Positions 7,001 to 53,021 of a stretch of DNA of 64,000 bases are shown here, in pieces; within the stretch, counting starts at the first letter, position 1; each line of letters begins with the position of its first letter. The notes below the pieces were generated by a model, which saw nothing but the letters and a program-made list of their open reading frames with translations, ran no database searches and was not told the origin of the DNA. This stretch comes from a virus. Made by a program: the position numbers and the translations under genes. The stretch lies in IMG/VR virus record IMGVR_UViG_3300045988_063953; one strand, given 5' to 3'.

Positions 7001-7551
7001 ATATTAATCCATGTGATAATTGTCCTCTAAGACTATTCAATAGTAAGTGTCATAATCTACAAGGAGTCGGTAATCCTTTTATGGGTAAACTTATTATACT
7101 TCCTAATGTAGATTATGATGCTTATAAATATAAAGATATGAGTTTTAGTAAGCAGGTAGAAGTGTTAATGCGGCACATTACCTTTACGGGGGAGTTAGCG
7201 GACACCTACATTGTCCCTTTAATTCGTTGTAATGAAAGTCTTGGTTGTGATATAAATGATAATATTATTCGTAATTGTCAAAGATATCTTACAGAAGATG
7301 TTAAGACTTATGATTTTAAGCATATTATGCTATGTGGTAGTGCTGTAGATAGATTTCTACATACTTCTATACATAGTGTACTTAATAGTATTGTCGTTTC
7401 AAGTAATAATAGACTTTATTATGCTAATTATAGTCCTCTTATTAAATATGTAGATGAAAGTAAGTTTAAGACTTTTGTTAAGAAAGTTGATGATTTTCTT
7501 TATTCTGCAAGTAATAATGATTATAGTAAGTATGATATTGTTAATCTCTAA
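6997..7551 (+). CDS. uracil-DNA glycosylase-like protein (family 4-like fold, degenerate motifs)
   Basis: N-terminal CDNCPL, GVGNPFMGKLIILPN, YIVPLIRCN and IMLCGSAV resemble family 4 UDG motif spacing. It sits next to the polymerase, as in crAss-like phages. Confidence 0.5.
   Translation: MNINPCDNCPLRLFNSKCHNLQGVGNPFMGKLIILPNVDYDAYKYKDMSFSKQVEVLMRHITFTGELADTYIVPLIRCNESLGCDINDNIIRNCQRYLTEDVKTYDFKHIMLCGSAVDRFLHTSIHSVLNSIVVSSNNRLYYANYSPLIKYVDESKFKTFVKKVDDFLYSASNNDYSKYDIVNL
7175..7194 (-). repeat. GC-rich motif copy A
   Basis: acattacctttacgggggag. Inside the UDG-like CDS, read as FTGE. Confidence 0.85.
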
Positions 7552-7563
7552 GTTGAAAATGTT

Positions 7564-9888: not shown

Positions 9889-11313
9889 ATGGAAGAACTC
9901 GGACAACTGTTTGAGATTGCTATTCAAGAATGGCGTGTTAAGAAAGGTGTAGGAACTGCTTTTGTTCCTCCTAAACTTAATAGTAAAGTTCTTGTTTTAG
10001 GCATTCTTCAACGAGTTTATAGTAGGTCGCCTACTTGTAGAACTCTAATTGTTGTTGAAACGTTTAATGATAGAATTGATTTAGTAGAGTTTCTAACTCA
10101 TCAAGAAAATGATGAAGAAAACAATGCTGAATTTAAGAAGTTACTTGATAGTAAACATATTAAAGTCTTAACTGCTGATTTTCTTAACAAAGCACTATTT
10201 GTAGAGAAACCTATGTTTTGTGTTCTTTATAAACTTAGTGAACTTGGCGGAAATATTAAAAGTAGTTTTCTTAGTAGTAAGTTTAGACTTGCTGTTATTA
10301 ATAGTCTTATGTCTACTTCTGAAGATACTGCTTTTCTTTATAAAGAAGCTCCTGTTCTTGATTGTTTCACAGATGAACAGATGCAAGCAGTTCGTGTTAG
10401 CACCCCCGTAAAGGGAATGTGTGTTGCACTTACTATTCCTGAAGATAGTGAAGATTATAAACTTCTTAAATATTACGATGAGTATGTTACTACAAGTCTT
10501 AATATATTTGGTACATTTGATTGTATTAAAGAGGCTTGTTATGGTAACTCAGCTTTGAATATCTCTGCTGCTCAAGTATGTAATAGAATTGCGTCTGATA
10601 ATGGTTGGAATGAATTACTTGATATGTCTATTGAATATAATAGGCAAATTGATGAATTATATAATCCTATCAGTATTAGAGAACGTGCTTCTATGACATA
10701 TGAAGTTATACGTAATAGACAAAATCTTGTCGCATCTAATAATGTTAAACTTGATGCAATACTTGAATATGTTAATGAACATAGTGATGAGAAAATTCTT
10801 ATAATTAGTAGACATAGTAGTTTTGCTAAAAAGATTACTGATTATTTGAATACAATGTCTGAAGATGTTATTTGTGGTGATTACCATAATAATGTCGAAT
10901 CAGTTCCTGCTGTTGATGTAGATGGAAATCCTATTTATATTAAGAGCGGAAAGCATAAAGGTGAAAGAAAAATGATGGCTGCTACTGCTCAAAAACGACT
11001 TAATGTTGAATTGTTTGAACGTGGTACTATTAGAGTTCTTTCTACTAATAATGCTCCTGATAAAGAACTTGATGTAAAAATAGACAGGATTTTAATTTCC
11101 TCTCCATTGTGTTCTGATATAAAGTCTTATCTGTATAGGCTTGACAAACTTTTGCTGCCACAGACGTTAAATGTGGCTTATCTATATATAAAAGGTACGC
11201 AAGAGGAAAAGGTAATACGAGATAGAGATTTAAGTATTAGTAGTGATAATATTAAAAATAGTGAAACAGATGATGTAGATAATAATTTTTCTGATTTTGT
11301 TATTGCAGATTAA
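9889..11313 (+). CDS. SF2 helicase-like protein (putative)
   Basis: RTLIVVETFNDR and a helicase-C-like ILIISRHSSFAKKI ... RVLSTNNAPDKELDV ... ILISSP. No clean Walker A seen. Confidence 0.45.
   Translation: MEELGQLFEIAIQEWRVKKGVGTAFVPPKLNSKVLVLGILQRVYSRSPTCRTLIVVETFNDRIDLVEFLTHQENDEENNAEFKKLLDSKHIKVLTADFLNKALFVEKPMFCVLYKLSELGGNIKSSFLSSKFRLAVINSLMSTSEDTAFLYKEAPVLDCFTDEQMQAVRVSTPVKGMCVALTIPEDSEDYKLLKYYDEYVTTSLNIFGTFDCIKEACYGNSALNISAAQVCNRIASDNGWNELLDMSIEYNRQIDELYNPISIRERASMTYEVIRNRQNLVASNNVKLDAILEYVNEHSDEKILIISRHSSFAKKITDYLNTMSEDVICGDYHNNVESVPAVDVDGNPIYIKSGKHKGERKMMAATAQKRLNVELFERGTIRVLSTNNAPDKELDVKIDRILISSPLCSDIKSYLYRLDKLLLPQTLNVAYLYIKGTQEEKVIRDRDLSISSDNIKNSETDDVDNNFSDFVIAD
10401..10420 (+). 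repeat. GC-rich motif copy B (CAC variant)
   Basis: cacccccgtaaagggaatgt. Inside the SF2 helicase-like CDS, read as TPVK. Confidence 0.75.
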
Positions 11314-14321: not shown

Positions 14322-15551
14322 ATGAAAAGAACACCTAACACAATTAGTCTTACAAAGGAATATATAGAAAGTAAAGTTTCACAAGAACTTATTATTTCTA
14401 AATATTTAGATATTCCTATTGAAGTAATACAAGAGTGTATTACTAAAAATACTCTTATTAAATCTGTATTTCGTGATGATGATGTTACAGGTAGTATGGG
14501 TATTCAATATAATGTGAAAGGTAGGTTAAAAGTTCGAGATTTTGGTGGTTTTGGCTTTTTTGAAGATGTTTATGGAGTAGTAGCTTATGTATTAAGTATT
14601 GCTTATGAACGTAAAATAGAAACTTCAAGGAAAGAAGATTTTTATTTTGTTCTTAAACATATTGCTTATACTTTTAGTGATATTATTGATGGTAAGGTTG
14701 TAGACCCTAACGTTGATGCTCTTATTGCTCACGCTCTGCATAAAGCTAAAACTAAGAAAGCAATTATCGAAGTAGTTCCTCGTAGTTGGACTAATAAAGA
14801 TAAAAATCTTTGGGCTAAATGGGGTGTATCTTTAGGTTATCTTAATACTCATTTTGTTATACCTGTTGAACAATATTATATCAATAGAGGAGTTGACACC
14901 AAACCAAAATATTATCATAAAGATAAAGACCCTTGTTATGCTTATATGCTTGGTCAAAATAGACAAGGTATTTATCTTATTAAACTTTATTTTCCTTTAA
15001 GAGATAGACATCATAATACTACTAAGTTTGTTACTAATTGTAATGTTCTTGAAGGTTTATATAACCTTGAACTTGATAATTATGATTATATTATTATTAC
15101 TAAAAGTAGTAAAGATAGACTTAGTATAGGTAGTCATTTATCTGCTCATCCCTTTTACGGGGGAGTGAGTGGCAAACTCAATATTGGAGTTATTAATCTA
15201 CCAAGTGAAAATTATAAACTTAAACAAAATGAATATGATTGGATAAAAAGAAAACTTAAAAATGATGGTATTATATTTAGTCTTTTAGATTTTGATGAAA
15301 CAGGTCGTCAAGGTGCTAAATATCTATATGATACTTATAACATTCCTTATATGTTTATAACTCGTGGAGAACTTGGACTTCCTGATTATGAATGTAAGGA
15401 TTTTGCTGAACTTTGTGAAAGATATACAGATAATGAAATTAATAATTTTATAAATGAAACTTTAACTTATGTCGAACTTAGATATAAAAGAGGGGATATG
15501 GGTAGTGCTGCCAGTATTGGCACAATGTATGACGATATGCTCCCGTATTGA
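14322..15551 (+). CDS. Toprim-like domain protein, putative DNA primase
   Basis: IIITKSSKDRLS ... LLDFDETGRQGAKYL resembles a Toprim DxD segment, but the conserved Glu is not obvious. Sits in the replication module. Confidence 0.45.
   Translation: MKRTPNTISLTKEYIESKVSQELIISKYLDIPIEVIQECITKNTLIKSVFRDDDVTGSMGIQYNVKGRLKVRDFGGFGFFEDVYGVVAYVLSIAYERKIETSRKEDFYFVLKHIAYTFSDIIDGKVVDPNVDALIAHALHKAKTKKAIIEVVPRSWTNKDKNLWAKWGVSLGYLNTHFVIPVEQYYINRGVDTKPKYYHKDKDPCYAYMLGQNRQGIYLIKLYFPLRDRHHNTTKFVTNCNVLEGLYNLELDNYDYIIITKSSKDRLSIGSHLSAHPFYGGVSGKLNIGVINLPSENYKLKQNEYDWIKRKLKNDGIIFSLLDFDETGRQGAKYLYDTYNIPYMFITRGELGLPDYECKDFAELCERYTDNEINNFINETLTYVELRYKRGDMGSAASIGTMYDDMLPY
15146..15165 (-). repeat. GC-rich motif copy C
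   Basis: tcatcccttttacgggggag. Inside the primase-like CDS, read as FYGG. Confidence 0.85.
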
Positions 15552-17647: not shown

Positions 17648-17650
17648 AAT

Positions 17651-18007
17651 ATGAATTTAATAGCTTATGATGAAATAGTTGATAAAGTAGACAAAACCAA
17701 GACGTGGTTAGATGGCAAAACAGGTAATATATTTAGTAGAGAATTAGCTTTTAGAAAGTATCATACTTTTATTAAAAGATATAATCCTCAAACTAATAGT
17801 ACAACTATTTATATTGCAATGCTTGATAATAAAGCTGATACTAAAGTTGCTTATATTACTCGTAAAGATACCTATAATCGGATTTGTCTAAAGACTAAAC
17901 TGATTCTTAAAGAATTTAGTTTAAATAACGTCGATAAAGAAGTTAATATACGTCTTAATCATATAGAACATTCTGATGATGGTGATGTGTATGAAGTGTG
18001 TATTTAG
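17651..18007 (+). CDS. hypothetical protein
   Basis: 118-aa ORF. Motif copy D starts 16 nt after its TAG. Confidence 0.6.
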   Translation: MNLIAYDEIVDKVDKTKTWLDGKTGNIFSRELAFRKYHTFIKRYNPQTNSTTIYIAMLDNKADTKVAYITRKDTYNRICLKTKLILKEFSLNNVDKEVNIRLNHIEHSDDGDVYEVCI

Positions 18008-18022
18008 GGAGTGTTCCGATAC

Positions 18023-18042
18023 CTCCCCCGTAAAAGATATGT
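18023..18042 (+). repeat. GC-rich motif copy D
   Basis: ctcccccgtaaaagatatgt. Intergenic, 16 nt after a stop codon. Confidence 0.85.
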
Positions 18043-20141: not shown

Positions 20142-20486
20142 ATGTTGTATATGGTATTAGACATTAATGTTCCAGAAGAGCTTTGTACTGAAGATGTTAA
20201 TAACTTCACTTCTAAAGCTGTAGAGTGTGTTGAACTTTATGCTAAAAAGAATCATGATTATGGTAATTCTTTTGAGAAAGGTTGTGATGACATTGGTCAT
20301 GCTTATGCTACAGGTCGTCTTTATGACAAGGTTAATCGCCTTGTTAATGTTACAAAAACTGAAAGTGAGGTTAAAGATGAATCTGTAGAGGATACTCTAA
20401 AAGACCTTGCTTGTTATTCTCTAATGTATCTTGCTTATCTTAATAAGAAAAGAGTTGCAAGTATTCCTGATGTAGATTTTGAGTAG
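20142..20486 (+). CDS. DUF1599/MazG-like nucleotide-metabolism-associated protein (tentative)
   Basis: The ATG follows the upstream stop directly. YAKKNHDYGNSF resembles the KNxDYG signature of DUF1599. Adjacent to thyX. Confidence 0.45.
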   Translation: MLYMVLDINVPEELCTEDVNNFTSKAVECVELYAKKNHDYGNSFEKGCDDIGHAYATGRLYDKVNRLVNVTKTESEVKDESVEDTLKDLACYSLMYLAYLNKKRVASIPDVDFE

Positions 20487-20496: not shown

Positions 20497-20516
20497 ACAT
20501 TTTCTTTACGGGGGAG
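20497..20516 (-). repeat. GC-rich motif copy E
   Basis: acattttctttacgggggag. Intergenic, upstream of thyX. Confidence 0.85.
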
Positions 20517-20539
20517 GTAGTGTTAAACTTATAATTGAT

Positions 20540-21547
20540 ATGAAGATTATTCATCCAAGTGTAGAGTATTGGTCTCAAGCCAATACTCTTGATGGTATTT
20601 GGGAACATGCTGCCAGATGTGCTCGAGTATGTTATCAAAGCCAACCTGTTAAAGAAGGAGAATCTGGTAAAGATTTTCTTCTTAGAACTATTGCTAAAAA
20701 TGGTTTTAGAAAAGATAAAAGTAGTCATATGAGTGTTCTTGAACATTCTACTGTTTATCTTAGAGTTACAAATGCTGAAGGTTGTTTTCATGATATGAAA
20801 GATAAATATCTTAGAAATCATTATTCTCGTATTGTTGTAGAAGTTTATGATAATGATTTATCTAATAGAGGTATTCCTTTTTCTGAAGCATTTATTACTA
20901 CTAATCTTAGAGTTCTTGTTGAAAATGATTGGCTTGATGATTTACGTTTTATTGCTGATGACATAACTAAACATAAGAAACGTTATACATTTAGTATTAT
21001 AACTAATCTTGGTGTTTCTCGTGAAATTAATAGACATAGAGAACATTCTAAGACAGCTGTTGATGGTGGTTTAGACCCTTCAGTTTCTGAAGAAAGTACT
21101 CGTTATTGCAATTATTCTAAAGATAAATTTGATAATAGACTTACTTTTGTTATTCCTGCTTGGAGTAATTTAGAAGAAGGTACTGTTGTTAAGAAACCAA
21201 CTTATGCTTGGGATCATTATAAATATGATTACTATCTTAATGATAAACTATTTACTTCTGTATTTGAAATAAAAGATGATGAGCGTAAGTTTACTGATGA
21301 TTTTGTTTGGCTTATTGCAAATAAACATGCAGAAGAAGCTTATCTCTTATTACTTGCTAATGGTCAAAAGCCTCAACAAGCAAGGGAAGTTCTTCCTCTT
21401 AGTCTTAAAACTCAAGTTATTCATACAGCTTTTGAAGATGATTGGAGAAATTTTATTGCTTTAAGAAGTGAAGGTATAAGTGGTGCTCCTCATCCTAATG
21501 CAAAACAAGTAGCAGATAAAGTTAAATATTTAATAGAACATATGTAA
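20540..21547 (+). CDS. thyX: flavin-dependent thymidylate synthase ThyX
   Basis: HMSVLEH, RHREHS and ESTRY match the ThyX RHRxxS...SxRY signature. Confidence 0.85.
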   Translation: MKIIHPSVEYWSQANTLDGIWEHAARCARVCYQSQPVKEGESGKDFLLRTIAKNGFRKDKSSHMSVLEHSTVYLRVTNAEGCFHDMKDKYLRNHYSRIVVEVYDNDLSNRGIPFSEAFITTNLRVLVENDWLDDLRFIADDITKHKKRYTFSIITNLGVSREINRHREHSKTAVDGGLDPSVSEESTRYCNYSKDKFDNRLTFVIPAWSNLEEGTVVKKPTYAWDHYKYDYYLNDKLFTSVFEIKDDERKFTDDFVWLIANKHAEEAYLLLLANGQKPQQAREVLPLSLKTQVIHTAFEDDWRNFIALRSEGISGAPHPNAKQVADKVKYLIEHM

Positions 21548-24171: not shown

Positions 24172-25236
24172 ATGAGTAAATATAATACTAATGGATTGCC
24201 TTGGTCTTCTGGTCTTGGTAAAGAAGTTACTGATTGTGTAACTGCTAAAGAAGTTATGCAAAAAGCTAAACTTGATTGGACTGTTGAAAAATGTGAACTT
24301 GTTGCTAAAATGCCTTTTAATATTAATGGTAATAATACCGTTGATGAAAAGAATGGTGATTTTAGTTATAAAGGTAACATTTATCGAGAGTGTCCAAAAG
24401 CATATGGTACTTATCGTACAGATGTAAATTTACCTCTTGGTATTGTTAAGGATAAATATAAAGTAGTTCAAAATATTGATGCTTTTGATTTCTTTGATGA
24501 TGCTATTGGTAAAGATAAAGCTGTTTGGCAAAAAGCTGGTCTGTTTGGTATAGGTCAAAAAGTATTTGTTACTGCAAAACTTCCTACAACTATGAAAGTA
24601 GGTAATGATGAAATTGAGAATTATCTTGTATTTAGTAACTCTCATGATGGTAGTAGTAGTATAAATATTCTATTCACTCCTATTAGAGTTGCTTGTACAA
24701 ATATGCTTAATAGTGCTTTGAAGAATGCTGATTCTTATATTAGAATTAGACATACTGAAAGTGCTGAAGAGAAACTTCAAACAGGTGCTGAAATACTTCG
24801 TATTGCCGCTGAACACGCTAATTCTGCTCAAGAACTTTATCGTGCTCTTCAAACAATTAATATGTCAGATGATGAAGTTATGAAGTATATTCTTAATCTT
24901 AATCTTACTGAACAAGAGAAAGGACTTCTTGCTGAATATTCTGATACAAAGACTGCTATTAAACGTCTTTATAATCGTGATTTTACTACTATGGAACATG
25001 TTGGTGTTAGTACTCGTAAAATGAATACTATTGTTAATATGTTTGAGTATTACATGGATGGTATTGGTCAAAAGGAAATAGCAGGTACTGCTTGGGGTGC
25101 TTATAATGCTGTTACAGGATTTTATTCAAATGTTGCTAATCTTAGTGGTGAAAAGCGTATGGATAGTTTACTTTATGGTAGTGCTAATCGTGTTATGAAT
25201 AAAGCACTTAATTTAGCACTTGCTGATGCTGTGTGA
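24172..25236 (+). CDS. DUF932-like (phage/plasmid-like) protein
   Basis: YLVFSNSHDGSSSINILFTPIRVACTNML matches the DUF932 SHDGS...R..C.N core pattern. Confidence 0.6.
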   Translation: MSKYNTNGLPWSSGLGKEVTDCVTAKEVMQKAKLDWTVEKCELVAKMPFNINGNNTVDEKNGDFSYKGNIYRECPKAYGTYRTDVNLPLGIVKDKYKVVQNIDAFDFFDDAIGKDKAVWQKAGLFGIGQKVFVTAKLPTTMKVGNDEIENYLVFSNSHDGSSSINILFTPIRVACTNMLNSALKNADSYIRIRHTESAEEKLQTGAEILRIAAEHANSAQELYRALQTINMSDDEVMKYILNLNLTEQEKGLLAEYSDTKTAIKRLYNRDFTTMEHVGVSTRKMNTIVNMFEYYMDGIGQKEIAGTAWGAYNAVTGFYSNVANLSGEKRMDSLLYGSANRVMNKALNLALADAV

Positions 25237-25248
25237 GTTGCTCTATAA

Positions 25249-25268
25249 CTCCCCCGTAAAAGAAATGT
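25249..25268 (+). repeat. GC-rich motif copy F (consensus)
   Basis: ctcccccgtaaaagaaatgt. Intergenic, 13 nt after the DUF932-like stop. Confidence 0.9.
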
Positions 25269-25862: not shown

Positions 25863-26165
25863 ATGAAAAAGTATGTAAAAGAAATGGTAGAAGAGCATAG
25901 CCAACTCTATGTTCTTCTTGAGAAACTTAATGACTTTATTTATAATCAAGATACATCTCATATTAATAAGGCTGATTTTGCTAATATGTGTATGCAACTT
26001 GCTGCTATGCGTCAGTATGAGAAGTGTCTTGTTGCTCGTCTTAACAATGCTGGTGTTTCATTTACTGATGGTGCTTATCATGAGTGTGTAGCAGTTATTG
26101 CTGCTCCTCAGTGTGATTGTGAGGATAAAGACGATGCTGAGGAAAATCAAGAAGATAACGAATAA
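25863..26165 (+). CDS. hypothetical protein with acidic tail
   Basis: 100-aa ORF with a CDCEDKDDAEENQEDNE tail. Confidence 0.55.
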   Translation: MKKYVKEMVEEHSQLYVLLEKLNDFIYNQDTSHINKADFANMCMQLAAMRQYEKCLVARLNNAGVSFTDGAYHECVAVIAAPQCDCEDKDDAEENQEDNE

Positions 26166-26430
26166 CAAGGTTATCCTTGTTACTACTAAAGGTTGTGAAG
26201 GTTGTACTATTGCTCGTAAACTTATTAAAGAAGCAATAGATGACCATTCTAAGACTATTAGTTTTGAACAACAAACTCTTGCAGAATTTGGTAGACGAAG
26301 ACTTACTGAAATGAAAATTAAAGATTTTCCTGCAATACTCTTTTATAAAGATGATGTTCTTGTTCATAAACATATTGGTACTGCACCTTTAGCATTTTTC
26401 CTAAGATGGTTTGATGTATATTTTGATTAA
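26134..26430 (+). CDS. thioredoxin/glutaredoxin-like protein
   Basis: CxxC motif (KGCEGCTIA) and a thioredoxin-fold-like FPAILFYKDDVLVHKHIG. The start codon is uncertain. Confidence 0.55.
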   Translation: MLRKIKKITNNKVILVTTKGCEGCTIARKLIKEAIDDHSKTISFEQQTLAEFGRRRLTEMKIKDFPAILFYKDDVLVHKHIGTAPLAFFLRWFDVYFD

Positions 26431-27164: not shown

Positions 27165-27184
27165 ACCATTCCTTTACGGGGGAG
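27165..27184 (-). repeat. GC-rich motif copy G
   Basis: accattcctttacgggggag. Intergenic. ttcctttac (27169-27177) pairs with gtaaaggaa (27140-27148). Confidence 0.85.
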
Positions 27185-27191
27185 TTATAGT

Positions 27192-33100: not shown

Positions 33101-36100
33101 CATCAAAATCACTTATATTATACTTTTCAAGTAATTCTTTCTGATTAATAGAAACACGTTTCATGCCATAATAACTATAACCTAATTCAGACTTCTTATC
33201 TACCTTATCAATCTTTCTTGTAGGAATAGCACGAAGAGTAGGATTACTTCTTAAAAATCTTTCTTCTAAACTATTTATAGCACTTGCTTCAAATGTTTTA
33301 TCCATACCTCTAAATTGGTCATTAACTTCTTGAGTAAAACCAATTCCGTCAAGAATACTACCATTATCAGTTCTGTCATTGAATAGAGTACTATTCTTAA
33401 TAACTTTACTTACACCACCACGACGCATCTTAAAGCCATCAACAACAAAAGCATATTTGATAATATCAATAGCTGTTGCTGCAAGTAATGGATTATTGTT
33501 ATCAAGAAGTTTTTCAAAACTATTATAAACAGTTTCAATGTTATCACTATTCTCAATAAAACTAATAGTATGCTTACCAATACGTCCTTTGAATGTATTA
33601 TGAGTAGAAGCTCTAAGATACTTAGTAACAAGACCATCACTAAATCTACTTTGAACCCAAAGAACCTTTTGTGCAGGACTAAGAGTAAGAAATTGTCTAA
33701 CTTCTTCTATAGTAGGATGATTAGCATCTTTAACGTCAAATGGTACTTTATTACCATCAGCATCTTCTACAAGACTTTGAGCATCTCTATTATAACCAAA
33801 TATTCTTTGAGTTTCTTCATAAGCATCATCGACCATCAGATTATCTGTAACAGCAGGTTGTAAACCAAACTCTTCAGAATAACTCATTGGGAATTTAATA
33901 GAAGAAACATTACTATACATACTACCAAGAACATAGTTTTGATAATCTCTGTAAGTCTGTTCTGTCATTACTTTACTACCTGTAAAGTTCTCAGCAAGAT
34001 GAGTTATAATACTTCTAAATCTATCACTTTGTGTAGCAAAAAGAAGTCTATTAACTTTAATAGAAGGTGCAGTAGCATATCTCAAGAAAGCATCAAGAGT
34101 AGGATAAGAAGATTTTACATCACCTTTGTAAGACATATAATCATCAATAGAACCAGACACTCCCGGATATACACTTTCAATAAAGTTTACACCATCTACG
34201 TTAAGAAGAATACCATTATCTGTATGATTATGTCTATCAATCAAAGTATGAATATCATCAAATACTTTATTTGTAGCAAATATACTTTGTTTAGCACCAA
34301 ACTTATCTGGATTACTTACACGAGCAAGGTCACCAATGTTTTGTGCAAGAGCATTAAGTTTATTGAACTGAAGTATAGTTACAAGGTCAAATACAAGAGA
34401 ATCAGCATTGTTACTTTCTTTTACGGGGGAGGTACCAAAAACTCCCTTTTCTTTAATTCTATCACCAAGAAGTTTAGTATCCAAAGGAACATCACTTAAA
34501 AAACTATGGTCAAGAGAAATATTATCTTTAATACCAAATAGTTTAGCAAGGCTCTTTTGAACATCACCATTCTTATTCAGTTCTTCTATTACTTTATCAA
34601 TAGGAGTAAACTTATCAACTTTAATATCTAAAGCCTTAGCAATATCCTTAATAGCAGCATGAATAGGATTATAATTACCAGAAACATAAATAGATTTATT
34701 TGCATTATAAGCATCTACAATTCGAGTAACACCTGGTTGCATAATAAAAGCAACAGCTGTTTCAAAATCAAGTCCAACATCAGGAAACGTTTTGAATACA
34801 GCAAAGGTATAATCATTCTCATTAGGAATGGCATCCTCTTTAATAGCATCAAGAATATGAGCAGTAGTCTGAGAACTATAAGCAGTAATAATCTTACCTG
34901 CAATATTTTTATTATTCTTAGACCAACCTAATTTATCAACTGTAAGAGTAATAGTACCTTTATCTGTATCAATAACTGCCATATCACCAAAAGAATCTGT
35001 TACAGTCTTAATATCATACTTAGCTAAAGGAAGTACAACTTTGAATTGAGCAGACTTATGTATAGTAGGTTTTACAGTATTACAAACAGAACAGAAAGTA
35101 TCACGAGTTACACTAAATGCTTTAAGTTTAGCACCAGACATAGCATCATCTTGATACTCAGCTTGGTCAATAACATTATAAGGAGTTCTATTTTGACGAG
35201 CAATTTGAGCAGGAGTTCCAGCATAAATAGCATTACGAGCTTTAATCAAATCATCAAAGTTAGAACGAGAAAGATTTTCTTCAAGACTATCTTCATGAGA
35301 AAGAATAGCTTTCATACTATCAAGCATTTTATTTTGACGAGCACGTTTAGTATTCTCTCTGATAATCTTATCTTTATTTTGTTCAGACCATTCATCTCTA
35401 CTTAGAAGACCATGTTCTATAGCCCAATTATTATGATTAAATTCTTTATCTTCTAATAAACTTTTATCTTCTACATGATCTTCAACATAGTCATTATAAG
35501 ATTTATTAGCTACTTCAATATAAGGAACTTTTCTTATAATACCTTCTTCATCAATAAAAGTATTATACTGAATACCATAAACAGAGTCAATATCAAAGTC
35601 AGAACCTGTCTGAGAAACCCAAGCATCAGGAACTACAATAGTAGAACCTAAAGCATCATCAGTAAAACCTACAACCTTAAACTTACAAACAGATTGTTTA
35701 CCTTCAGTAGGAATACGATAACCAAGAATTTCATCAAGACCTTCAGCTTGAAGTTCTTTAAGCAAATCTTCATCACTCTTAAAACTACCGTCATCATTAA
35801 TTCTTTTAAAACCAAAGTTAGCTGCAGGAAGCATTACTTCAATATAATCTGTATAATTACCATTTTTATCAGAATGATATCGAAGACTATGACTATAAGC
35901 ATAAGACTTTACAGACTCACGAATAGCCTTAAAACCAATATTAGTAATCTGAGCAGCATGAAAACCTGGAAGTTTCTGTCTTGTAATACCATTATTAAAC
36001 ATAGCTTGAGCAATATTTTCAAGTTTAGTTGAAACATTACTCATAAACAATGGCATACGAGTTAATGGAGTATTTCCAATTCTCTCTTCATCTTGAAGAG

Positions 36101-39100
36101 TTAGAAAGTCCATCATATTACTATCAAGAGCTTGTCTTTCAGCCTCAGCTTGAAGTTTTTCAAAGAATACTTCAGCATCAAGTCCAACAGGATTACCTTG
36201 TTCATCAAGTTTAAGATTACCATCTTCGTCTAATTCAAGACCACAATCTTGCATAAGTTGAACAAAATCATCATAAACATTAGCAGCATGACAATCCATA
36301 AAAGTTTCTTTATAAGCATAAAGAGGACTGTCTTTGTCAATGTTATCAACAATTTTCTTCATAATCTGAATAGCAGCTTTATTCTCTGCATTGATATGCT
36401 GAGGAGTTTCTTGCTGAGTATAAAGATGATTATAATCAAAAATCTGACAAGCTTCAGGACTTTTAACAGCTTTACAAAAATCACTCTTAAACCCTGATTC
36501 TCTATCTAAATCTTCAATAATTTTAGAATCAATTTCACCATTATTATCCCAAAGAGTAAGAATATTAGCTTTACCTGCTTTAGAAGTTTCTTCTGTATTA
36601 AGCTGGTCAATACCAAACTTATCCATAAGTTTAGCAACTTGTTCAAGTTGAGTGTCTTTAATAAGACGAGGAACTAATACAAATTCAGCATTTTTAATCT
36701 GACGAGGAGCAACTACACCAAGTTCAGCATTATAATGTAAATCGTAATAAAAGTTCTTTTGAACTTGAATAAATTCTTTAATATCTTCAGGATTAAGTTC
36801 TTGACTTTCATCGAGAATCTTTTCAATAAGAGGTTTATACTTATTAAATTGACCTCTTGCAGTAACACGACGAACCCACTCATTAAATGTAATATATGAT
36901 TGAGCATCATTTACTGTAGTATCTTCGTAACCTTTAAGGAAAGCATTAGCTTTAGTGAGAGCATCTTTCTCACTAAGACCTTCTTTACGATATGCTTTAG
37001 CGAGAGCTTTTGCAACTACTCCGTTAGCCAATACTTCTTTTTGAGTTCTAATAGTATTCTTAATAGTAACTCCTCTAAAACCATCATACTGACGAACAAA
37101 ATAATCTTCTTTTGTTCCATCAGCGTTAATTTTAGTAAATGGTTTACTAAGAGGACTTGTAACTATTTCGTCTTTAGTAACCTTACTATTATCACGAACA
37201 GCATTGAATATACCATAAGGAACACCTGAACCTTGAACTTCTTTAGCACGTTTAAGAGCAGTCTGAGTATCTTTGTAGAACTTCATATCACCCTCAAAGA
37301 TATCATCGAAGTTCATATACATCAAGTTGTAATTAATAGCAAAATCAGAAATACGTTCAGGAGAAAGATTTTCTTTCTTAAGAACATTTTCAAATTCATT
37401 AAGTCTATTAGTACTATCAAATACAAAATCTTTAATATATTCAGAAATAGCAGCATCAACAGCTTCTTCTTGAGCTTCATTAAGAACTACAGCACCTGTA
37501 GTAGGATTGGTAGTTATAGCTTTGGTAGCTCCCCCGTAAAAGAAATCAAATACTGGTTCAACAGAATTACCGCTATTATCTGCATGAGCAAATAGTTCAC
37601 CAAGATAATTACGACCATTAAGTTGGAATTTAGCACTACGAAAAACATTACCTACAAGATAACGTCTACCATCAGATTCTACATAGAACTTACCACCTTT
37701 TTGATGATAATTAGCAAAAGTTTGATTAGGATTAAGTTTAGCTTTATAACCACCCTCACCATCTTCTTCAAATATTTTATCAAAAGCAGTCTTAGCATTA
37801 GTAAGTTCTTGCATAAACACTGCTTTATATTGTTGGTACACAGGAGAAGTCTTATCAATAATCATTTCAAGTTCACCTGAGTTGACCATTGTTTGCCTAA
37901 GTTGTTCGTGTATTGCACTGAGTAGGTCGTCCCCAATTTCTTTAACACCATACGTATCATGACTAAGTACACCTTTGAGAATTGGCTTTTCAAGAACGAT
38001 ACCATTATTATTCTTATCACCATAAGTACCCTCAAGAACATACTTAGTAGTAACACCATCATTATTAGTATAATGATAAGTTACTGTAATAGTATCACCT
38101 TTTTGCGGTTTACGACCTAAAGTTTCTTCAACTTCAGTATTAATATTAGAAACTTTAATAGTTCTACTTCTAAGATTACCTTTAGTTAAATCATAAAGAG
38201 CTCTTTTCTTGTCAGCAATAACAGGAGTAAGAGTATCATAAATTCCCTCTTCACCAGCAGGAATTTCAACAATTTCATTAATCTTAGCATCAATCTTTTT
38301 ATTAGCCTCAGTAGGATTCTTAAGTCTAAACAAAGATTTAGTAGAATAACGAGGAAGAGTAATAACAAAGTTACGAGAAGCATCAGAAGGAGTTCTTAAG
38401 AAATAATCTGCAACTTCAGTATCTTTACCTAATATAGCTTCTTCATTTTCAGCTTCAAAAAAGTGATAAACCTCAGTAGCAATATAATCTGCTTTACTCA
38501 TATTAGCATAAGTAGCAGCAGAATCAGAACTTTCATTTGCAGCACCATCAAAAAGTTTAACTTTTGCTAAACGATGAGCATACTCAGTAGGCTGATATTT
38601 ACCGTAAACAAGTCTAAACAAACCTTTGTTAATTACTTTACCGTTAGCATCAGTCTTTTCTACAAGAATGTTACTATAATCATATTGATTACTTTGGAAC
38701 ATAAGTTTACCAAAGTTTTCAAGAGCTTCTTTACTCTGAACAGTTCTAATAAAACCAGTAAGCCAACTACTATTAATCACATTAGAACTTTGATTACCAT
38801 GAACATTATATGAATTAAGTTCAACATTAATAGTAGAATAAGGAGAAAGTTTGTTAGCTAATTCATTACTTAAAGTAATAGCACGAGGAGTCAAATATTC
38901 TTGCTCTCGTGCTCCACTAACATCTCTATAATCATCAGCTGTTGGATAATGTCCATGAGAATACTTATCCCAAATATCTTGTCTATTAGGATTACCATAT
39001 TGTTTAGAAGCATCTAATTCCTTATTAACACTATATGCCTCACGAATATTATTTTCACGAGCAATATAATTGGCTTTTACACTCTCAGCTTCAGCTACTA

Positions 39101-40709: not shown

Positions 40710-43700
40710 TTATTTACAATATGTTTGAAGTTCACCATTGTCTATTTGTTCTCTCATCTTAGCCCTATTCTCAATAGGAATACTATCAATAAAAGACTTA
40801 ATAGTTGGAGTTCTAATGTCTTCGTCAATATTTGAACGCATAACATCATCAAAGTCAACATCCATATCAAATTCATTATCAAAAGAATCTTCTGAATCAT
40901 AAACTTTAGGAGGTTCTTCTTTAGTTGTTTCAGGAGAAGTAGTTTCTTCTGTAATTTCCTTTACGGGGGAGGTATCAGAACTCTCATCTTTGAAATCTAA
41001 TGTACCCTCTTTTGCAACTTCTTTTTTAGTAGTATTAAGAATATCACCGAGAGCAACTATTTCTTTCTCATAAAGAGAACCTTTACGAACATCCCAACCG
41101 AATATCTTGCAGAGTGTATCTACTATCTTTTGGAACAACGACTTCTTTTTAGAACCTTTATCTACTTTAGCATCAATAGCGTTAAGTCTATCAATAAGTT
41201 CTTTAGACGTTAAACTTTCAACTAAAAACTCTTCAAGAGCAATAGTATCATTTTTATCTATCTTTTCATAACGTCTAATACCTTTACCTTCTTCAAGACC
41301 ATCACGCTTATTAGCTTCAATAAATTCATCTCTAATAGCACGAACTTGCTCAATATATTTAGCATTACCATCTTGTGCAAGAATACGATGTAGTTGTTCA
41401 TGAATAAGTTTACGAAGAGCCTCTTGTTTAGTATCAGGATTTCTAAGCATATCAAGCCACTTTGTACCTACCGTAATAGTATCTTTAGTGACATTATATA
41501 AAGCATTAGTTCTTTCATATCCTGCTCTACTATTTAAGTCTTTGTCAAAGATAATAGTTTTTGGTAGAATAGAATAACCATTTATAGGTTTTAACAAGTT
41601 TTTTACACTATTACCAAGTATCATAGTAGCAATAGCATTACCTTGATGTTCTCTTTTATCTCCTTTTTCAAGAAGTTGAACAACTTTTTCTACTCTTGCA
41701 TCACCACTTGTTTTTTGCTCAGCAGTATTACCATTAATAGTTTCTGGAGTTTTAACAGCATCGAAACGTACATAAAGAGTTTGGTTACCTACTTGAGTTT
41801 TATCATTACGTCTTGTAAAGTTAGTTTCTTTACCATTAATATCTTTAGTCTTTTTGAGATTAATCTTAACAAGATTATTGTCAATAAGAAAATCTTTATA
41901 AGACTTAGCACTAACAACAGTAGGTTTACCTGTTTTACTATTAGGAATAGTAACAGTAAATTCACCTTTTTCATTACGTGACATAAAACCTGTAAGAGGA
42001 TAGTTTTCATTTATAGCATTTTGCATTGCGTCAAAATGAATACCAATAGCACTTCTATCAACAAATTGTTCAAACATTTTGATAGCAGCATCTTTATTTT
42101 CTCCATTCTTATCAAAGATACCTTTAGCTTCTCCTTGACGAACAGCAGTTTGATATTGTCTTTCACCTCTATAAATACTATTTCCAATACTTATAGAAAA
42201 TGGTTGACCATCAATAGCAATATTAAAACCATTACCTTTAGAAAAATCTCTAATAGTGATACCATTATCAGACATAAATCCTCTACTAATGGTTCTATTA
42301 TAATTACTAAAGACTTTATTAACAAAATCTCTAAGTCTTTCATAAGAACCTTCTTTATGAGCATAAAAATCTTCAAGAAGATTAGCAAATTCAGTCTTAA
42401 TAGCTTTCTGAATTTTAACTACATCTTTACTAAGACGTTTATCTCCAAAGCGTACAGGATAAGCTCTAACAAGTTGAGGAACACCGTTTTGGTCTTTAAT
42501 CATACCAAAGGTATTACCCGGAGTACCCGGAAAGTCAACTTGAGAACCACCATCACCATATACTATACCAGAAGTTCTTTCACCATAAGCATTTTGACCA
42601 GTAGGAATAAATCCAAATTCAAATCTATCCATAAGAGAATCAGCAACAGCATCTTTAACTGTATTAGCTTGTTTCTCAACTTCAGGATTAAGATATTCTT
42701 CATTACTCTCAACTTGCTTTGTTAGAATACCACTTGTAACATAATCTACAGTAGCTTCATATCCTTGTGGGAACTTAGCAATAGCACTAATAGCATTATA
42801 ACTATTAAGAAGTTTATCAAAGTAATCATCAATAGAATTACTAAGAACATCTGCAAGTTTATATTCTAAATCAGTACCAGCTACTTGATTATAAGACTTG
42901 GCAATATAACGATATAGTTTAGCAAAACCTTCTGCGACAATATCAATATCTGTTGGGTCGACTATAACACCTTTATCAACAAGAGCTTTAACTTCTTTAT
43001 TATTAAGAAACTTTTTATAGAGTTTCTTTCTATCCTTTTCAGTAAGAGTTTTATCAAATGCTAAACTATAAAGTATATCATTAACTTCAGAAGCATCTTC
43101 GTTTTCTTCATAAACCCAACGTTTAAGAGTATCTTTAAGAGTAGAATCTCCGTTATTGACATTAATATCATAAATAACACCATCGTTTTTTACAGTATAA
43201 GCATCAATCTCTTTAGATACAATAGGAACAGGAAGAGCACCAATTAAAGTACCATTAGTTCTAATGTGAAGTTTATTATTTCTAACTTCAATAGAAACTC
43301 TATCTCCAACTTTAACATTATCCAATGCTTCAAGCAGTTCATTAAGTTCATCAGTTCTATCTTCTTTTTGATAAAGTTCAACAAGCTGTTTGATATTAAG
43401 ACGATGTCTATCAGCATTAAGAGTTTGAATAATCTCTTTTTTATTATCGAAAATAGTTTCTGCGTCTAAAGCTGCTTCATCAACAATTCGATAAAGATAA
43501 TCTTTATTCTTACTCTTATCAAGAATATATTGTTTGAGATAACCATAAATGCCTGTAGCAGTATCAGGAGTTTCACTTACTTCATTGCACCAATTAAGTA
43601 AATCTTGGAAACTAAAATAATATCTTTCAACACCATTTTTATCTTTTCTAACAATACCATCTCTATCAGAAAGATAAGCGTCAAATAAAGCATCTGCTGC

Positions 43701-46700
43701 TTTGCTATAAACATCAGTAAACTTTTTATGCTTTTTACCATCAACTACTTCTTCTTCAATAGCAGACTGTCTATTCTGAGCATCAATAACACCTGCAATA
43801 GCATCAAGTTTATTATTACGTTTAGTAAGAAGTTTATTATATAATGGATTCTTTCTAATATCATTAACAATAGCTTTAAGAATATCCTCTTCCACACCTT
43901 GAGCTTTATAAGTATTATAAAGCTCATCAGCAAGTTCATCCATAGTAATCTTATCTTTATGAGCTTTAATAGTAGGAATAACAGCTCCATTAATTACTAC
44001 TTTAGCATCATTAAGAATCTCTTTACCAGAATCAGCAACAGCATCTTCATTAGAGTTTTCTGATACCTCCCCCGTATAAGAAATGTGAGATTGCTTACCA
44101 GTATCTCCTTTAAGATGTTTTTCTAACCATTGTTTTTGAATATCATTAAGTTGTATCCCACGAACTTCATCATTACCAATATCATCACCTTTTTGATAAG
44201 CAAAGAAAGTTCCGTTATCATTAACAACTATTTCCCCAACAACAGGTTCACCGTTAATATTACCTTTAATAGGTTTCTTAATCTTATATTTGAAAACTCC
44301 AAAGTCAGTTTCATTCTTACTAATAGTATCAATAAGAGCAGTTTCTTGTTGTTCTTTAATACTCTTATCTCCTTGAGGAGCTTCTTCAGAACTTTGTTCT
44401 TCTACAGGAGCATCACTTTTTTTACCTATAAGACCTTTACTAACAACTTCAAAATCACCATTATCTTTACGTTTAACAATAGGATTTTGTTTAACTTCAG
44501 CATTATTGTCAATAACCGAAGCATCTTTTTCAACATCAAATAAAGCAGTGTTATTAAACAAATGTTCAACACCTACTTTACCTTTAAGTTGAATTTCTTC
44601 AGTACCATCTTCTTTAGCTACAGTTTCTATGTTAGTTTTACCAGTAGAATCAATATCACCTTTATCATTAAAACGAATACTTTTAGCAGGAGTTTCTTCT
44701 GTTTTTGGCTCGGTCGGTTCAGTGGTTGGCTCGGTGCTTTCCTCGCTGCTTACTTCGTCCGTAGTGCCGTTCTTTTGGCTTTCCTCGCTTTCAGTTTCAT
44801 TTGTCGATTGATTATTCGACTTTTCATTTTCAGCCGTTTCTGAGGGATTTTGATTTGTGGTAGTATTTTTCTTCTTTTGCTCCTCCTTTTGGAACTGCAA
44901 TATCTCTTCTAAGTCCAACACATTTGTCAAACTTTCATAAAGTTGATTATTGTTAGGATTAGCAAAATTATAAACAGTAATTGCTTCATCAAACTTTTCT
45001 TTATCTTCTTTGTCATAAAGTTCAGTAATCTTATCAAACTCTTCATTATCTCCAATACGTCTACTTGCAAGAGCAGCTTCAAGACTTTCTCTACCATATT
45101 TACCAAGAATATCTTTGAAAGTATCAGTAGCTTTAGCAAGTTTAGCTCTACGCATTTCATTAAGAGTATTGTTAAGTACTCCTATTTCTGTTTTAAGTTC
45201 ACTAACAGAACTAACTACTTGAGAACGATTTTGATTAATTTGATAACCATATTGATAAGCTCTATTGTAAGACTCACCTATGGCATCTTCTTTGCTGCCA
45301 TACTCTTTAAGTTCTTCAAGAATGTCATTAGTACTACGATTGAGTTTATTATAATCAGTAGCAAATTGTTTTGCATCTTCTTCTGCTAATTGAAGAGTTT
45401 TATCATCAAGTTCAAATATATTTTGAACACCTCTGAAATCACCTTTGTCAATAGCATCTGCAATAGCTTTTTCTTCTTCTTGAAGAGCAAGTCTTCCAGC
45501 TTCATCATCTTTAGTTAAAAGACTTTGTCTTACAAGATTAGTCTTATTTCTTGCAAAGAATATTGGAAGCATACTTCTAACATCATTCTTATCATAAAGA
45601 CTTTCATGTAAAGACTTAATTTGTTTATCAATACTTTCGAGAGCTAATTGACCACCAATAGTAGGATTATCTTTAAGAGATTGTTCTACTTCTGCTTTAC
45701 TCTGATATAAGTCAGTTAAAGCCCAAACATTAGCACGAGCTTCAAGTGCTCTTTCATAATCTTCAACTTCACCACTAAGTTTACCATCTTCTTTAGCTTT
45801 AGCTATAAGAGCACGATAAATATTCAGTTCTTCATTACGAGCAGTTTCTAAAGTTTTAATACCAAGACGATTATATGCATTATTTGTAGCGATCGTTTGA
45901 AGCATTTCAAAAGGAATAACTTTACCATCTTCAACAGCATCAGCAGAAATACGATTAAGATGAGTAATTTCGTCATTATATTCTTTTTCTACTTGTGCTA
46001 TTTTATCAACAGCTTGTTGTTGAAAAGTATGACTATCTTCTTCACTAATAATACCTTTAGCTACCATAACTTGTCTGACATTATCATCAGACATAAATTC
46101 TTTAAGCAAAGAACTATTACCATTGTTCATTGCCTCTAAAGACATATCAGTAAGAGTTTTGTTAATTACTTGTTGCTTAAAAGTAGCTTGTTCAGCTTTA
46201 GTAAGTTCTCTATCATCAGAAGTATCAAAAGGATTACGAGCTTGTTCAATTCTTTTAAGTTGTTGTCCAAGTAATTGAAGTTTAGCATCTCTACCTTGAA
46301 TTTCGGCAATCTTACGTTTAACTTCTGGAAGTTCATCATTCATAGACCAAGAAGGAGCATTACTATTATTTTCTCCTGTAGTAGCATTTTCACCTGTTTT
46401 AGCCTTATCATTCTTATGTTCAAGGTTATATTTTAGCTGATTAAGTTTACTACCACCTACTTCAAATACAACACCACCAAGAACACCCCAAAACATACTC
46501 TCCCAAAGTTGAGGACTTTGAGCATAACTTTTAAGACGAGAATCAAAAGAACTACCGTTAGAAGTACCTAATAATACTCTACCAGTATCCATAGCCTCAA
46601 GCTGAGAAATAGTATTAACACCTTCTTCAAGACCTTCACCTAATTGAGCACCAACAGCAAGTTTACTCTTAAAAAGAAAATCAGTAGCATGGTCTTTAGT

Positions 46701-50978: not shown

Positions 50979-51006
50979 TCTCCTAATAGTATCATCTATT
51001 AGGAGA
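50979..51006 (-). terminator. hairpin between the 666-aa and 393-aa genes
   Basis: Perfect 11-bp stem tctcctaatag / ctattaggaga. The T tail is weak. Confidence 0.45.
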
Positions 51007-51020
51007 AAATTAATATTAAA

Positions 51021-53021
51021 TTACCAACTTGTTTGCACCACACCCATATCACGAAGTCGACGACGATAAGTGTTACCAAGTTTACCGTAAGCACTATTAA
51101 GTATTTCTTTATTTTGTTTATAATTAAGAACTTTTCTATCATAAGCCTTTCTACGTTCAGCAGTTACAGTGGGGTCTTCACCATTAATAACTTCAAATGT
51201 TCCAGGATCAGTTAAGTTCTGATTATAAGCATTACCAAAAATACCCATTATAGTATCTTGGTCTAAATCAACACCACTATTCATCATACGATAAGCAGTA
51301 CCATTTTCAGATGCTGCAAGAGCATAACGCATACCTTGTATATCTTCATATCTCTGAGAAGCTTGTCCAACAAAGTTAGAAACAGCTCTACCAAGACCTT
51401 GTAGAGTCATAACTTTAGCTTGTGTCTTAGCATTATCTTTAGCATTCTGAATATCAGCAACTTTATTAGCCCAATCAGATTGTATCTTAAGATTCTGTGC
51501 AGCAACTTCTTGTTGATTAAGAGCGTCTTTATTGATAAGCTCAGTTTCAACATTTTCTTTTTGAGCATAAAGTTTATCTATATCATCAGTTGCTTTAGTA
51601 TTCAGAAGATTACGTCTATTCAAAGCAGCAACAGAACTTGCAGTACCAGCATCAATATCACCAAAAGCTCTATTACGAGCACGATTAACTTCTTCTTCTT
51701 GAGGAGCTACATTATAAGTTGTTTTAAGCTTAGCAGCTTGAAGAAAACCGGGACGTTCTGGAAGATGAATACTATTAGCACCTTTACTATTAATAATACC
51801 TGTTGCAATACTACCAAGAATATCACCACCTAAACCAATCCAATCACCAGTTCTAATAGCCATACCTGACTTATTACCTGTAGTATTAATAGTTTGAGAT
51901 GGAATAGTAGCAGGTTGAGGCTGAGGTTGAACTACTTTCTTAGGAGGTGTTACAACAACTTCGTCCATAGTTACAGATCGACTTGGGTCAAATATACTTC
52001 CAGGACGAAAATCAATAGGTGGGTCATCATAAGAACCAAAAGGTGAAGTATTAAATAAACGTCTACGAGTAAAATTATACATACCACCAACTCGATGTTT
52101 AGGACGACCATAGTGCATTACCTTTACGGGGGAGCTATTATTAAATGTACCATCATCATTAAGTCCAGCTATTTTCTTAAATCTCTCTTGAGCAGCAAAA
52201 ACTTCATCTTTATTAGCACCAGAAAGAATTGCTTCTACAGGACTAATACCATTAAGTATAGGAGCACCACTAAAGATTCTAAGTTGATTCTTTTTAATTT
52301 GAGCAATCTCACCACCTTCAGCTTCAAGTTCTTTATTACCAACAGAGATACCAATACCAGTATTTCCACTTTCATTAATATCTTCATGGGAACTCCCCCG
52401 TAAAAGAAATGTGCCATTACCGACCTTTACAGCATCTCCACCATCAGTAATAACAGGTTGTTCTCTAAGTTTGCGACGACTACCAAGTTTAGCTTGTGAA
52501 TTAAATTGTCTTTGATAATCATTATTAACTTCTTCAGTACCTGTTAGAGCTTGACTAAGTTGAGATGCTTCTTGAACAGTATTGTTATAATTTTCAACTC
52601 TGCGCTGTCTTTCAGCAGCACGCTTTTTAGCACTATTACTAAGAAGACTTCCAATAATAGAACTTGCTAAACTTGCACCAACAGCAATAGCAGTTCCAAC
52701 AAATGCTTTAGGTCTATTACCTTTAATACTTCTTCTACCTCCAAGTTTATACTCAGTGTTATATTGAGTATTATAATCTTGATTAGTAGCAAGAGTTCCT
52801 TTAAGTTGAGAACTCATACCAGTAGCTTCACGTAAAGCATTTTGATATTCTTGAAGTCTATTTCTACGCTCTTCAAGTTTACGATTACCATCATTCTGTA
52901 TAGCAGTAGAAGCAACTGTACTTGCAACAGAACCTGCAGCACTAATAATAGAAGGTAATAGAGCCCCAAGATTAGCTCGAGGTCTATTACCAGAAACAGT
53001 AATTCTTTTTTTATTTGTCAT
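51021..53021 (-). CDS. hypothetical virion-block protein with internal tandem duplication
   Basis: 666-aa ORF. Two modules of about 90 aa (hydrophobic segment, helical segment, KLGGRR/KLGSRR) lie near the N-terminus. Confidence 0.75.
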   Translation of the reverse strand: MTNKKRITVSGNRPRANLGALLPSIISAAGSVASTVASTAIQNDGNRKLEERRNRLQEYQNALREATGMSSQLKGTLATNQDYNTQYNTEYKLGGRRSIKGNRPKAFVGTAIAVGASLASSIIGSLLSNSAKKRAAERQRRVENYNNTVQEASQLSQALTGTEEVNNDYQRQFNSQAKLGSRRKLREQPVITDGGDAVKVGNGTFLLRGSSHEDINESGNTGIGISVGNKELEAEGGEIAQIKKNQLRIFSGAPILNGISPVEAILSGANKDEVFAAQERFKKIAGLNDDGTFNNSSPVKVMHYGRPKHRVGGMYNFTRRRLFNTSPFGSYDDPPIDFRPGSIFDPSRSVTMDEVVVTPPKKVVQPQPQPATIPSQTINTTGNKSGMAIRTGDWIGLGGDILGSIATGIINSKGANSIHLPERPGFLQAAKLKTTYNVAPQEEEVNRARNRAFGDIDAGTASSVAALNRRNLLNTKATDDIDKLYAQKENVETELINKDALNQQEVAAQNLKIQSDWANKVADIQNAKDNAKTQAKVMTLQGLGRAVSNFVGQASQRYEDIQGMRYALAASENGTAYRMMNSGVDLDQDTIMGIFGNAYNQNLTDPGTFEVINGEDPTVTAERRKAYDRKVLNYKQNKEILNSAYGKLGNTYRRRLRDMGVVQTSW
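52115..52134 (-). repeat. GC-rich motif copy M
   Basis: gcattacctttacgggggag. In the 666-aa CDS, read as SPVK. Confidence 0.85.
52393..52412 (+). repeat. GC-rich motif copy N (consensus)
   Basis: ctcccccgtaaaagaaatgt, identical to copy F. In the 666-aa CDS, read as LLRG. Confidence 0.9.

Follow-up and report, generated by a model that had tools for sequence, protein, structure and literature searches.

The element and its setting

The virus record IMGVR_UViG_3300045988_063953 includes a stretch of 64,000 nucleotides (nt), hereafter the window, in which a long asymmetric sequence recurs 17 times, on both strands, within genes and between them. This element, which is a cis-acting DNA signal maintained by purifying selection, is the subject of the present analysis. 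The window is identical to positions 48-64047 of an 88,215-bp ENA contig, whose flanks were added for some of the spacing statistics given below, and represents about 64 kb of the 88-kb genome of a crAss-like phage of the family Intestiviridae. Its best nucleotide matches are cr271_1 (Hacihdavirus), cr8_1 and Carjivirus communis, and a 12-kb query returned crAss-like phages only, at ~77% identity across 12% of the query. The G+C content is 30%. Genes lie on the plus strand to ~26.6 kb and on the minus strand thereafter, with the GC skew switching at the same point, and their order is that of an Intestiviridae replication module (SF1 helicase, UDG, PolB, SNF2 helicase, RecT, SSB, primase and ligase) followed by giant virion RNA polymerase (RNAP) genes and then tail and ring genes.

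When CTCCCCCGTAAA is sought with at most one mismatch, 17 copies are found in the window, against a mean of 0.05 in 100 dinucleotide-preserving shuffles (Table 1). A position-weight scan scores the 17 copies at 34-52 bits and everything else below 8 bits, so that the set of copies is discrete. The strongly conserved block comprises 23 nt, from -3 to +19 (TAnCTCCCCCGTAAARGAAATGT), and is asymmetric; weaker conservation continues upstream to about -16 (GAGTT...TAC), giving a total of ~37 nt. Nine copies are on the plus strand and eight on the minus strand, ten of them lying inside six genes and seven in intergenic DNA. Two copies depart from the core. That at 2164 (core 2167-2178) carries a private G to T change at 2174 in an otherwise invariant core, where four close relatives have the consensus G, and the core of the copy at 44064 (44067-44078) reads GTATAA where a relative (L010) has GTAGAA, a change that is likewise private; these two copies may be decaying or tolerated variants. 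A host origin of the motif is ruled out, since a 19-nt pattern gave just 14 scattered single matches in 596 Gb of bacterial and archaeal genomes.

Table 1. Copies of the element in the 64,000-nt window, with the peptide encoded by each intragenic copy (position of the motif in brackets)
Position	Strand	Location	Orientation to gene	Peptide	Variants and counterparts
2164-2186	+	intergenic			core variant CTCCCCCTTAAA; orthologous copy cr271_1 90844
7175-7197	-	UDG-like gene 6997-7551	antisense	FTGE (7183)	same alignment column as cr271_1 86390 (STGE)
10398-10420	+	SNF2 helicase gene 9889-11313	sense	TPVK (10401)	core CACCCCCGTAAA; same alignment column in four phages, same residue position in crAss002
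15146-15168	-	primase gene 14322-15551	antisense	FYGG (15154)	position kept in five phages
18020-18042	+	intergenic, 16 nt after stop of 17651-18007			orthologous copy cr271_1 74333
20497-20519	-	intergenic, between DUF1599 gene and thyX
25246-25268	+	intergenic, 13 nt after stop of DUF932 gene 24172-25236
27165-27187	-	intergenic, 8 nt after stop of 4477-aa RNAP gene			orthologous copy cr271_1 66210
30947-30969	+	4477-aa RNAP gene	antisense	LYGG (30950)
34412-34434	-	4477-aa RNAP gene	sense	SPVK (34420)	same column as cr271_1 59063 (SPVE)
37526-37548	+	4477-aa RNAP gene	antisense	FYGG (37529)	same alignment column (1215) in four phages; LLYGG at matching crAss002 place
40952-40974	-	2371-aa gene (giant RNAP protein)	sense	SPVK (40960)
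44064-44086	+	2371-aa gene (giant RNAP protein)	antisense	YTGE (44067)	core variant GTATAA
52115-52137	-	666-aa gene	sense	SPVK (52123)	opposite-strand partner 270 nt off
52390-52412	+	666-aa gene	antisense	LLRG (52393)	same column as Rudgehvirus 31623 (LLRG)
59646-59668	+	intergenic			one arm of head-to-head pair upstream of CrAss_Ring_2 gene (ATG 59616)
59678-59700	-	intergenic			variant CTCCCCTGTAAA; second arm of pair, 37-nt offset

The location of the copies bears directly on whether the element might be a promoter or terminator of a phage RNA polymerase. A contiguous 23-nt block is reminiscent of the promoters that single-subunit phage polymerases use, T7-like promoters also being conserved blocks of ~23 bp that co-vary with lineage, and several of the intergenic copies lie just 3' of stop codons. 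However, T7-type promoters are co-oriented with the genes that they serve, whereas here both sense and antisense copies are found deep inside long open reading frames (ORFs): six of the ten intragenic copies are antisense to their gene, and sense copies lie mid-way in essential genes of 7 and 13 kb. The intergenic copies, too, occur in both orientations rather than upstream of, and co-oriented with, genes that they could serve. Because most intragenic copies are antisense and the sense ones are mid-gene, a role as a transcription signal is very unlikely. [quoted passage not shown]

Conservation across Intestiviridae

A motif family of this kind is present in five phages, which cover at least three named subfamilies in addition to the lineage of the window, with 17-32 copies in each genome, intragenic and intergenic and on both strands. 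Copies in the relatives were found with genome-specific matrices or patterns. There are 18 in cr271_1 (Obtuvirinae; tAGCTCCCCCGTAGAAGARATGTG), 28 in the cultured Rudgehvirus jaberico (Crudevirinae; TTGnTGTAAnnTCCCCTGTARAGGAG), 32 in Carjivirus communis, the prototypical crAssphage or p-crAssphage (Crudevirinae; TAnACYCCCCGTRGAGGATGGA), and 28 in the cultured crAss002 (Churivirinae; tTTCCCCC[G/A]TA[A/G]AGGAG). Each lineage has its own version of the motif, which implies co-evolution with a phage-encoded reader.

Sites were compared between genomes through whole-protein alignments, which replaced tblastx mapping, the latter being too noisy because the motif itself seeds matches. The copies in the SNF2 helicase and primase genes and one copy in the RNAP gene occupy the same alignment column in four phages, with matching residue positions in crAss002, even though protein identity among the four aligned phages is 28-50%. 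The position of the intergenic copy at 59646 is similarly kept in four phages, downstream of a gp57 homologue. At such orthologous sites the peptide changes with the DNA variant of the lineage. Across the five phages the helicase site reads STPVK, STPVE, NSPVK, LLPVE and HSPIKE, while at the primase site the frame itself differs, giving PLRG in crAss002 as against FYGG, LYGG or LQG in the other phages (FYGG in the window). Close to the position of the RNAP copy at 30947, cr271_1 has a copy nine alignment columns away and in another frame (FTGE), which indicates turnover of copies near one place.

Copies that are specific to one lineage take the form of short insertions, as the original prediction had anticipated for the motif. 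Examples are an insertion of 18 amino acids (aa) in Carjivirus PolB, the copy at 49353 in Rudgehvirus RNAP, and a copy in Carjivirus RNAP. In a relative of the window at ~87% identity (L120), an extra copy at 1457 lies inside a 48-nt intergenic indel that is absent from the window (at ~3917), and its upstream 16 nt are similar to the 16 nt that precede the window copy at 20505. Gain and loss of copies thus take place in short blocks.

A sequence of related appearance recurs outside the family. In crAss001 (Steigviridae, MH675552, positions 1-100000) CCCCGT is absent, and there are 38 copies of TCCAGAAG, 27 of them as the 9-mer CTCCAGAAG, where ~2 would be expected; they lie on both strands and in several frames, and the plus-strand CTCCAGAAG copies are regularly spaced (coefficient of variation (CV) 0.46, P = 0.0006). 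The sequence is similar to the cr271_1 motif, CTCC[CCCGT]AGAAGAGA, with the five central bases left out. These findings suggest an analogous system beyond Intestiviridae, and CTCCAGAAG may be a shorter version of one and the same system in a different family.

Selection acts on DNA

The original prediction held that selection on the motif acts on the nucleic acid and not on a peptide, and four independent lines of evidence support it. The ten ORF-embedded copies translate as had been claimed (Table 1), in four combinations of frame and strand, although in six proteins (UDG-like, SNF2 helicase, primase, two giant RNAP proteins and the 666-aa protein) rather than the seven that had been counted. 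To encode these peptides the copies use the rarest synonymous codons of the genome: CCC (2.1% of Pro), TCC (1.0% of Ser), GGG (1.9% of Gly), TAC (7.7% of Tyr), ACG (2.2% of Thr) and CGG (0.5% of Arg). Among ten IMG/VR fragments of relatives that are 82-97% identical to the window, mismatches amount to 3.9% in the 23-nt block and, over 300 nt of flanking sequence, to 8.8% (Fisher P = 8e-5); in several cases a difference arises because the window itself departs from consensus. Added to these are the peptides that follow the lineage, and the intergenic copies together with a strand rule (described below) that governs the placement of copies without relation to genes and so likewise supports selection on DNA. 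Purifying selection on nucleotides thus maintains the motif, which is a cis-acting DNA signal of Intestiviridae, placed in intergenic DNA or, where none is available, in frame within genes.

Selection on the encoded tetrapeptides has, by comparison, next to no likelihood. All that speaks for it is that the copies leave reading frames open, and it has to contend with the use of four frames, the rarest codons, seven copies that are intergenic, and single sites whose reading frame varies between phages; it is refuted by codon usage and frames together. The frame that would give LPRK is, as had been noted, unused in the window but is used in relatives (KLPRRG in Rudgehvirus; TPRGGE and TPRRGR in Carjivirus), and its absence from the window is a small-sample effect.

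Strand-specific spacing of copies

The strand of the motif alternates between neighbouring copies in 15 of 16 cases in the window (P = 3e-4) and in 90 of 118 over the five genomes (P = 4.5e-9). Strict alternation was nevertheless rejected as the primary rule. Spacing on each strand taken separately is regular (CV 0.12 and 0.23 in the window; 0.21 and 0.22 with the flanks, P<5e-5 and 2.5e-4), with same-strand intervals of ~7 kb in the window's phage, whereas spacing with both strands pooled is much less so (CV 0.57 in the 64-kb window), and both the flanks and the relatives break the alternation. Per-strand regularity is also seen in most strand sets of the other four genomes. Alternation is therefore secondary to a rule that operates on each strand, and copies on opposite strands ignore each other.

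The most general signal of placement is repulsion between copies on the same strand. Across the ten strand sets the minimum distance between copies on one strand ranges from 1.9 to 7.1 kb (combined P = 4e-17), and the pairs separated by less than 500 nt in the five genomes comprise 19 on opposite strands and none on the same strand. At the other extreme, the largest same-strand gaps are shorter than a hard-core random model expects (combined P = 9e-4).

That the strongest spacing signal is a minimum same-strand distance is also what might be seen if the element were a selfish in-frame mini-repeat without function for the phage, with close direct repeats lost by deletion and inverted ones tolerated. 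The short lineage-specific insertions and the 48-nt indel of L120 lend themselves to the same explanation, and there is a precedent in the Rickettsia palindromic elements (RPEs), which are found in frame in protein-coding genes as small insertions. RPEs, however, are palindromes of 100-150 bp with a patchy, non-orthologous distribution, whereas the element described here is short and asymmetric, obeys a strand rule, and keeps its positions across a virus family. Retention of the same protein positions in five phages despite their divergence, purifying selection on the block, the sharing of one lineage version by all copies of a genome and the limited size of the largest gaps are all difficult to reconcile with selfish spread, and no transposase was seen. 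We consider this explanation improbable.

The late structural module differs from the rest of the genome. Over four complete Intestiviridae genomes and the right flank of the window, the site lists give ~23 antisense copies in this module against ~5 sense copies; the antisense copies are regularly spaced, and stretches of 13-38 kb on the sense-oriented strand carry no copy. Elsewhere, in the replication and RNAP modules, the two orientations are about equally frequent. Regular spacing in mainly one orientation is as expected for a signal that is tied to a direction of tracking.

These observations also bear on the idea that the copies are bound by a protein, architectural or packaged, that arranges the genome within the capsid or as it is ejected. 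A long asymmetric site at regular spacing would suit such a protein, and crAss virions carry much internal protein. The idea leaves unexplained, however, why spacing should be regular for each orientation but not when the orientations are pooled, and why one orientation should be depleted in the late module. Moreover, the so-called IHF-like genes match the Pfam ring families CrAss_Ring_1 and CrAss_Ring_2. An architectural role is accordingly given little chance of being correct.

Where copies on opposite strands come close, they can form well-defined pairs. Head-to-head pairs with an offset of 37-38 nt are found in three genera, at 59649/59686 in the window, 22901/22938 in Carjivirus, and both 28708/28746 and 64741/64778 in crAss002, and Carjivirus has wider head-to-head pairs upstream of both of its RepL genes. 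Some copies in Carjivirus and crAss002 are preceded by two to four tandem CGCTN pentamers or by GC-rich hairpins with 3-nt loops, for example GAGTGCtacGCACTC. In both genomes CGCTNCGCTN is found exclusively in the position directly 5' of a motif copy, and it is absent from the window, cr271_1, Rudgehvirus and crAss001. The long forms in Carjivirus include pairs upstream of both RepL genes.

The window pair has a further consequence for annotation. A 301-aa ORF with a GTG start (58936-59841, minus strand) spans the pair, and is also called at 301 aa on public contigs. Orthologues of CrAss_Ring_2 have 231-234 aa, so the 301-aa ORF is an over-extension; a start at the ATG at 59616 gives 226 aa and places the pair ~30 nt upstream of the true start codon. 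Judging from these lengths, the longer call is probably an artefact of the open frame that runs through the motif.

What might read the signal

For a site this long and asymmetric to co-vary with lineage, its reader must be encoded by the phage, and a rule obeyed by each orientation on its own is indicative of a process travelling unidirectionally along DNA. The per-orientation rule is better accounted for by the initiation of strand synthesis, by nicking or by a Chi-like stop signal than by architecture or transcription. The mechanism that we tentatively prefer, as a possibility short of an even chance, is that each copy would be a fixed start point for DNA strand synthesis. The signal would be read by a factor moving unidirectionally along one of the DNA strands, and the phage replication proteins would prime sequence-specifically at each copy. 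Copies would in this way resemble the single-strand initiation (ssi) signals known from plasmids, except in being dispersed across the genome, so that each strand could be started or restarted every few kb, whatever the direction in which a fork or recombination intermediate travels. The intergenic head-to-head pairs would act like the paired ssiA and ssiB of an origin, and both they and the wider RepL pairs would fit dispersed strand-initiation signals.

The ssi signals (ssiA and ssiB of RSF1010; the G4-type and phiX-type primosome sites) are strand-specific, start DNA synthesis and are ~40 nt long. In RSF1010 they form opposed pairs on the two strands at the origin that are read by the element-encoded primase RepB'. 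Known ssi signals are hairpin-structured and occur once or twice per replicon, while the copies here are unstructured, number 17-32 per genome, and lie in many cases inside genes.

Several results weigh against strand-synthesis initiation. Single copies lack the structure of classical ssi signals: DNA folding of 50-nt site regions gave no hairpin beyond background in single motif copies, and the mean folding energy of single-stranded DNA was -2.5 kcal/mol at the window sites as compared with -2.3 for background, with a similar result in cr271_1; energies at the sites were only slightly lower than background in Rudgehvirus and Carjivirus. No gradient of GC or AT skew, of the kind that would form a mutational sawtooth, was found between copies. 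A nickase or DNA-binding candidate for the reader was sought in the ORFs of the replication module and none was found. The crAss002 orthologue of the primase is annotated as DnaG family, and primases of the DnaG type normally read trinucleotides. Full coverage of each strand is not universal, since in three strand sets the copies are interrupted by gaps of 21-38 kb, which without exception fall in the late structural module. Finally, same-strand repulsion could result from the avoidance of deletions between direct repeats.

Programmed single-strand nicks, made by a phage nickase that cuts the motif strand and spaced ~7 kb apart on each strand of mature or replicating DNA, are a less likely alternative to strand-synthesis initiation. 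All five phages encode a DNA ligase, and an asymmetric site of 23-37 bp suits monomeric nickases of the HNH or GIY-YIG type. Nick-associated motifs are, moreover, the closest described phenomenon: they are dispersed, conserved among distant phages, located in and out of ORFs at ~1 per 3.5 kb, and of unknown function (PMC11780129). The nick motifs of T5, phiKMV and tf/Rembedalsseter (WACTRTGAC) share with the element a dispersed and specific sequence, present in and out of ORFs and conserved despite little nucleotide similarity. They are, however, 9-19 nt long, confined to one strand and unevenly distributed, whereas the motif here has at least 23 nt and occupies both strands, each with its own spacing rule, with opposed copies down to 37 nt apart. 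No nuclease shared by the five phages came to light, genes of the HNH and GIY types having a patchy distribution. A weak HNH match at 26134-26430 was considered as a nickase and rejected, the protein being a CxxC thioredoxin.

Less probable still is a Chi-like role, in which the motif would tell a translocating helicase-nuclease, phage-encoded or phage-modified, to stop degrading DNA and start recombination, allowing rescue of breaks in either direction within a few kb. Chi sites are orientation-dependent, over-represented, present at one per few kb and, in their case, read by a tracking enzyme; the signal here has its own spacing for each orientation, and one orientation is depleted in the late module. 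The phages encode RecT, a PD-(D/E)XK exonuclease, a RecD-like SF1 helicase and a Gam-like protein, and the 8-9-mer (C)TCCAGAAG that is enriched on both strands of crAss001 is of Chi size. Chi sequences, though, have 5-8 nt, belong to the host and are abundant in its genome, whereas the element, with at least 23 nt and 34-52 bits, is far longer than any known Chi, has flank conservation that is specific to the phage lineage, and is absent from bacterial genomes, so that it is not the host's Chi.

Other features of the window

Attention was also given to the primase as a component of the replication module. Its sole match was PHROG 12622, 'DNA primase'; there was no match in Pfam, and PDB sequence and profile searches were empty. 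The AlphaFold model was poor (predicted local distance difference test (pLDDT) 60), and a Foldseek search with it gave no match with E below 0.05. In this model pLDDT is below 50 over aa 225-284, and the motif copy is at the end of that segment.

The window further encodes a DUF1599 protein, ThyX, a Gam-like protein, a DUF932 protein and a dUTPase. The DUF932 gene (plus strand) specifies a 'phage/plasmid-like' protein (E = 9e-51) that is conserved in all five Intestiviridae genomes examined. The DUF1599 protein (114 aa; 20142-20486, plus strand) matches 'nucleotide modification associated domain 1' (E = 1e-7), and its gene is directly upstream of thyX (20540-21547), which encodes a flavin-dependent thymidylate synthase; this adjacency may hint at a modified base in the DNA of the window's phage. 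In cr271_1, PolB (83336-86033) is annotated as two coding sequences with ~390 nt between them, which may reflect an intron, an insertion or an assembly problem.

A perfect 9-bp hairpin, GCCACTAAT aattgttaa ATTAGTGGC, is located at 2127-2153 (plus strand), directly upstream of the copy at 2164 and within 900 nt that contain no long ORF. The window has no tRNA and no known RNA family, no Rfam covariance model reaching its gathering score.

Implications for crAss-like phages

The element has not been described in the full-text literature that was searched (by motif strings, and for crAss phages together with nicks, motifs or promoters), most subscription journals being outside the coverage. The crAss-like phages dominate the human gut virome and their replication is largely unknown, and few features of Intestiviridae genomes are as well conserved as this signal. 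In essential genes it takes precedence over both the choice of codons and the protein sequence, examples being the polymerase, helicase, primase and virion RNAP genes of the prototypical crAssphage. By the same token it has practical consequences: the motif disrupts assemblies made with short k-mers and misleads gene callers, as in the extended Ring_2 ORF, it offers an invariant target for detection or CRISPR, and it must be kept when these phages are engineered.

Since crAss002 and Rudgehvirus jaberico are in culture, the function of the signal is directly testable. It is conceivable, if less than probable, that Crassvirales tag each of their DNA strands at measured distances with a long lineage-specific sequence that would be read by a phage factor, either for strand starting at multiple sites or for nicking of both strands. 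If true, this would be a sequence-programmed form of strand starting or two-strand nicking that is without a described equivalent in phage replication.

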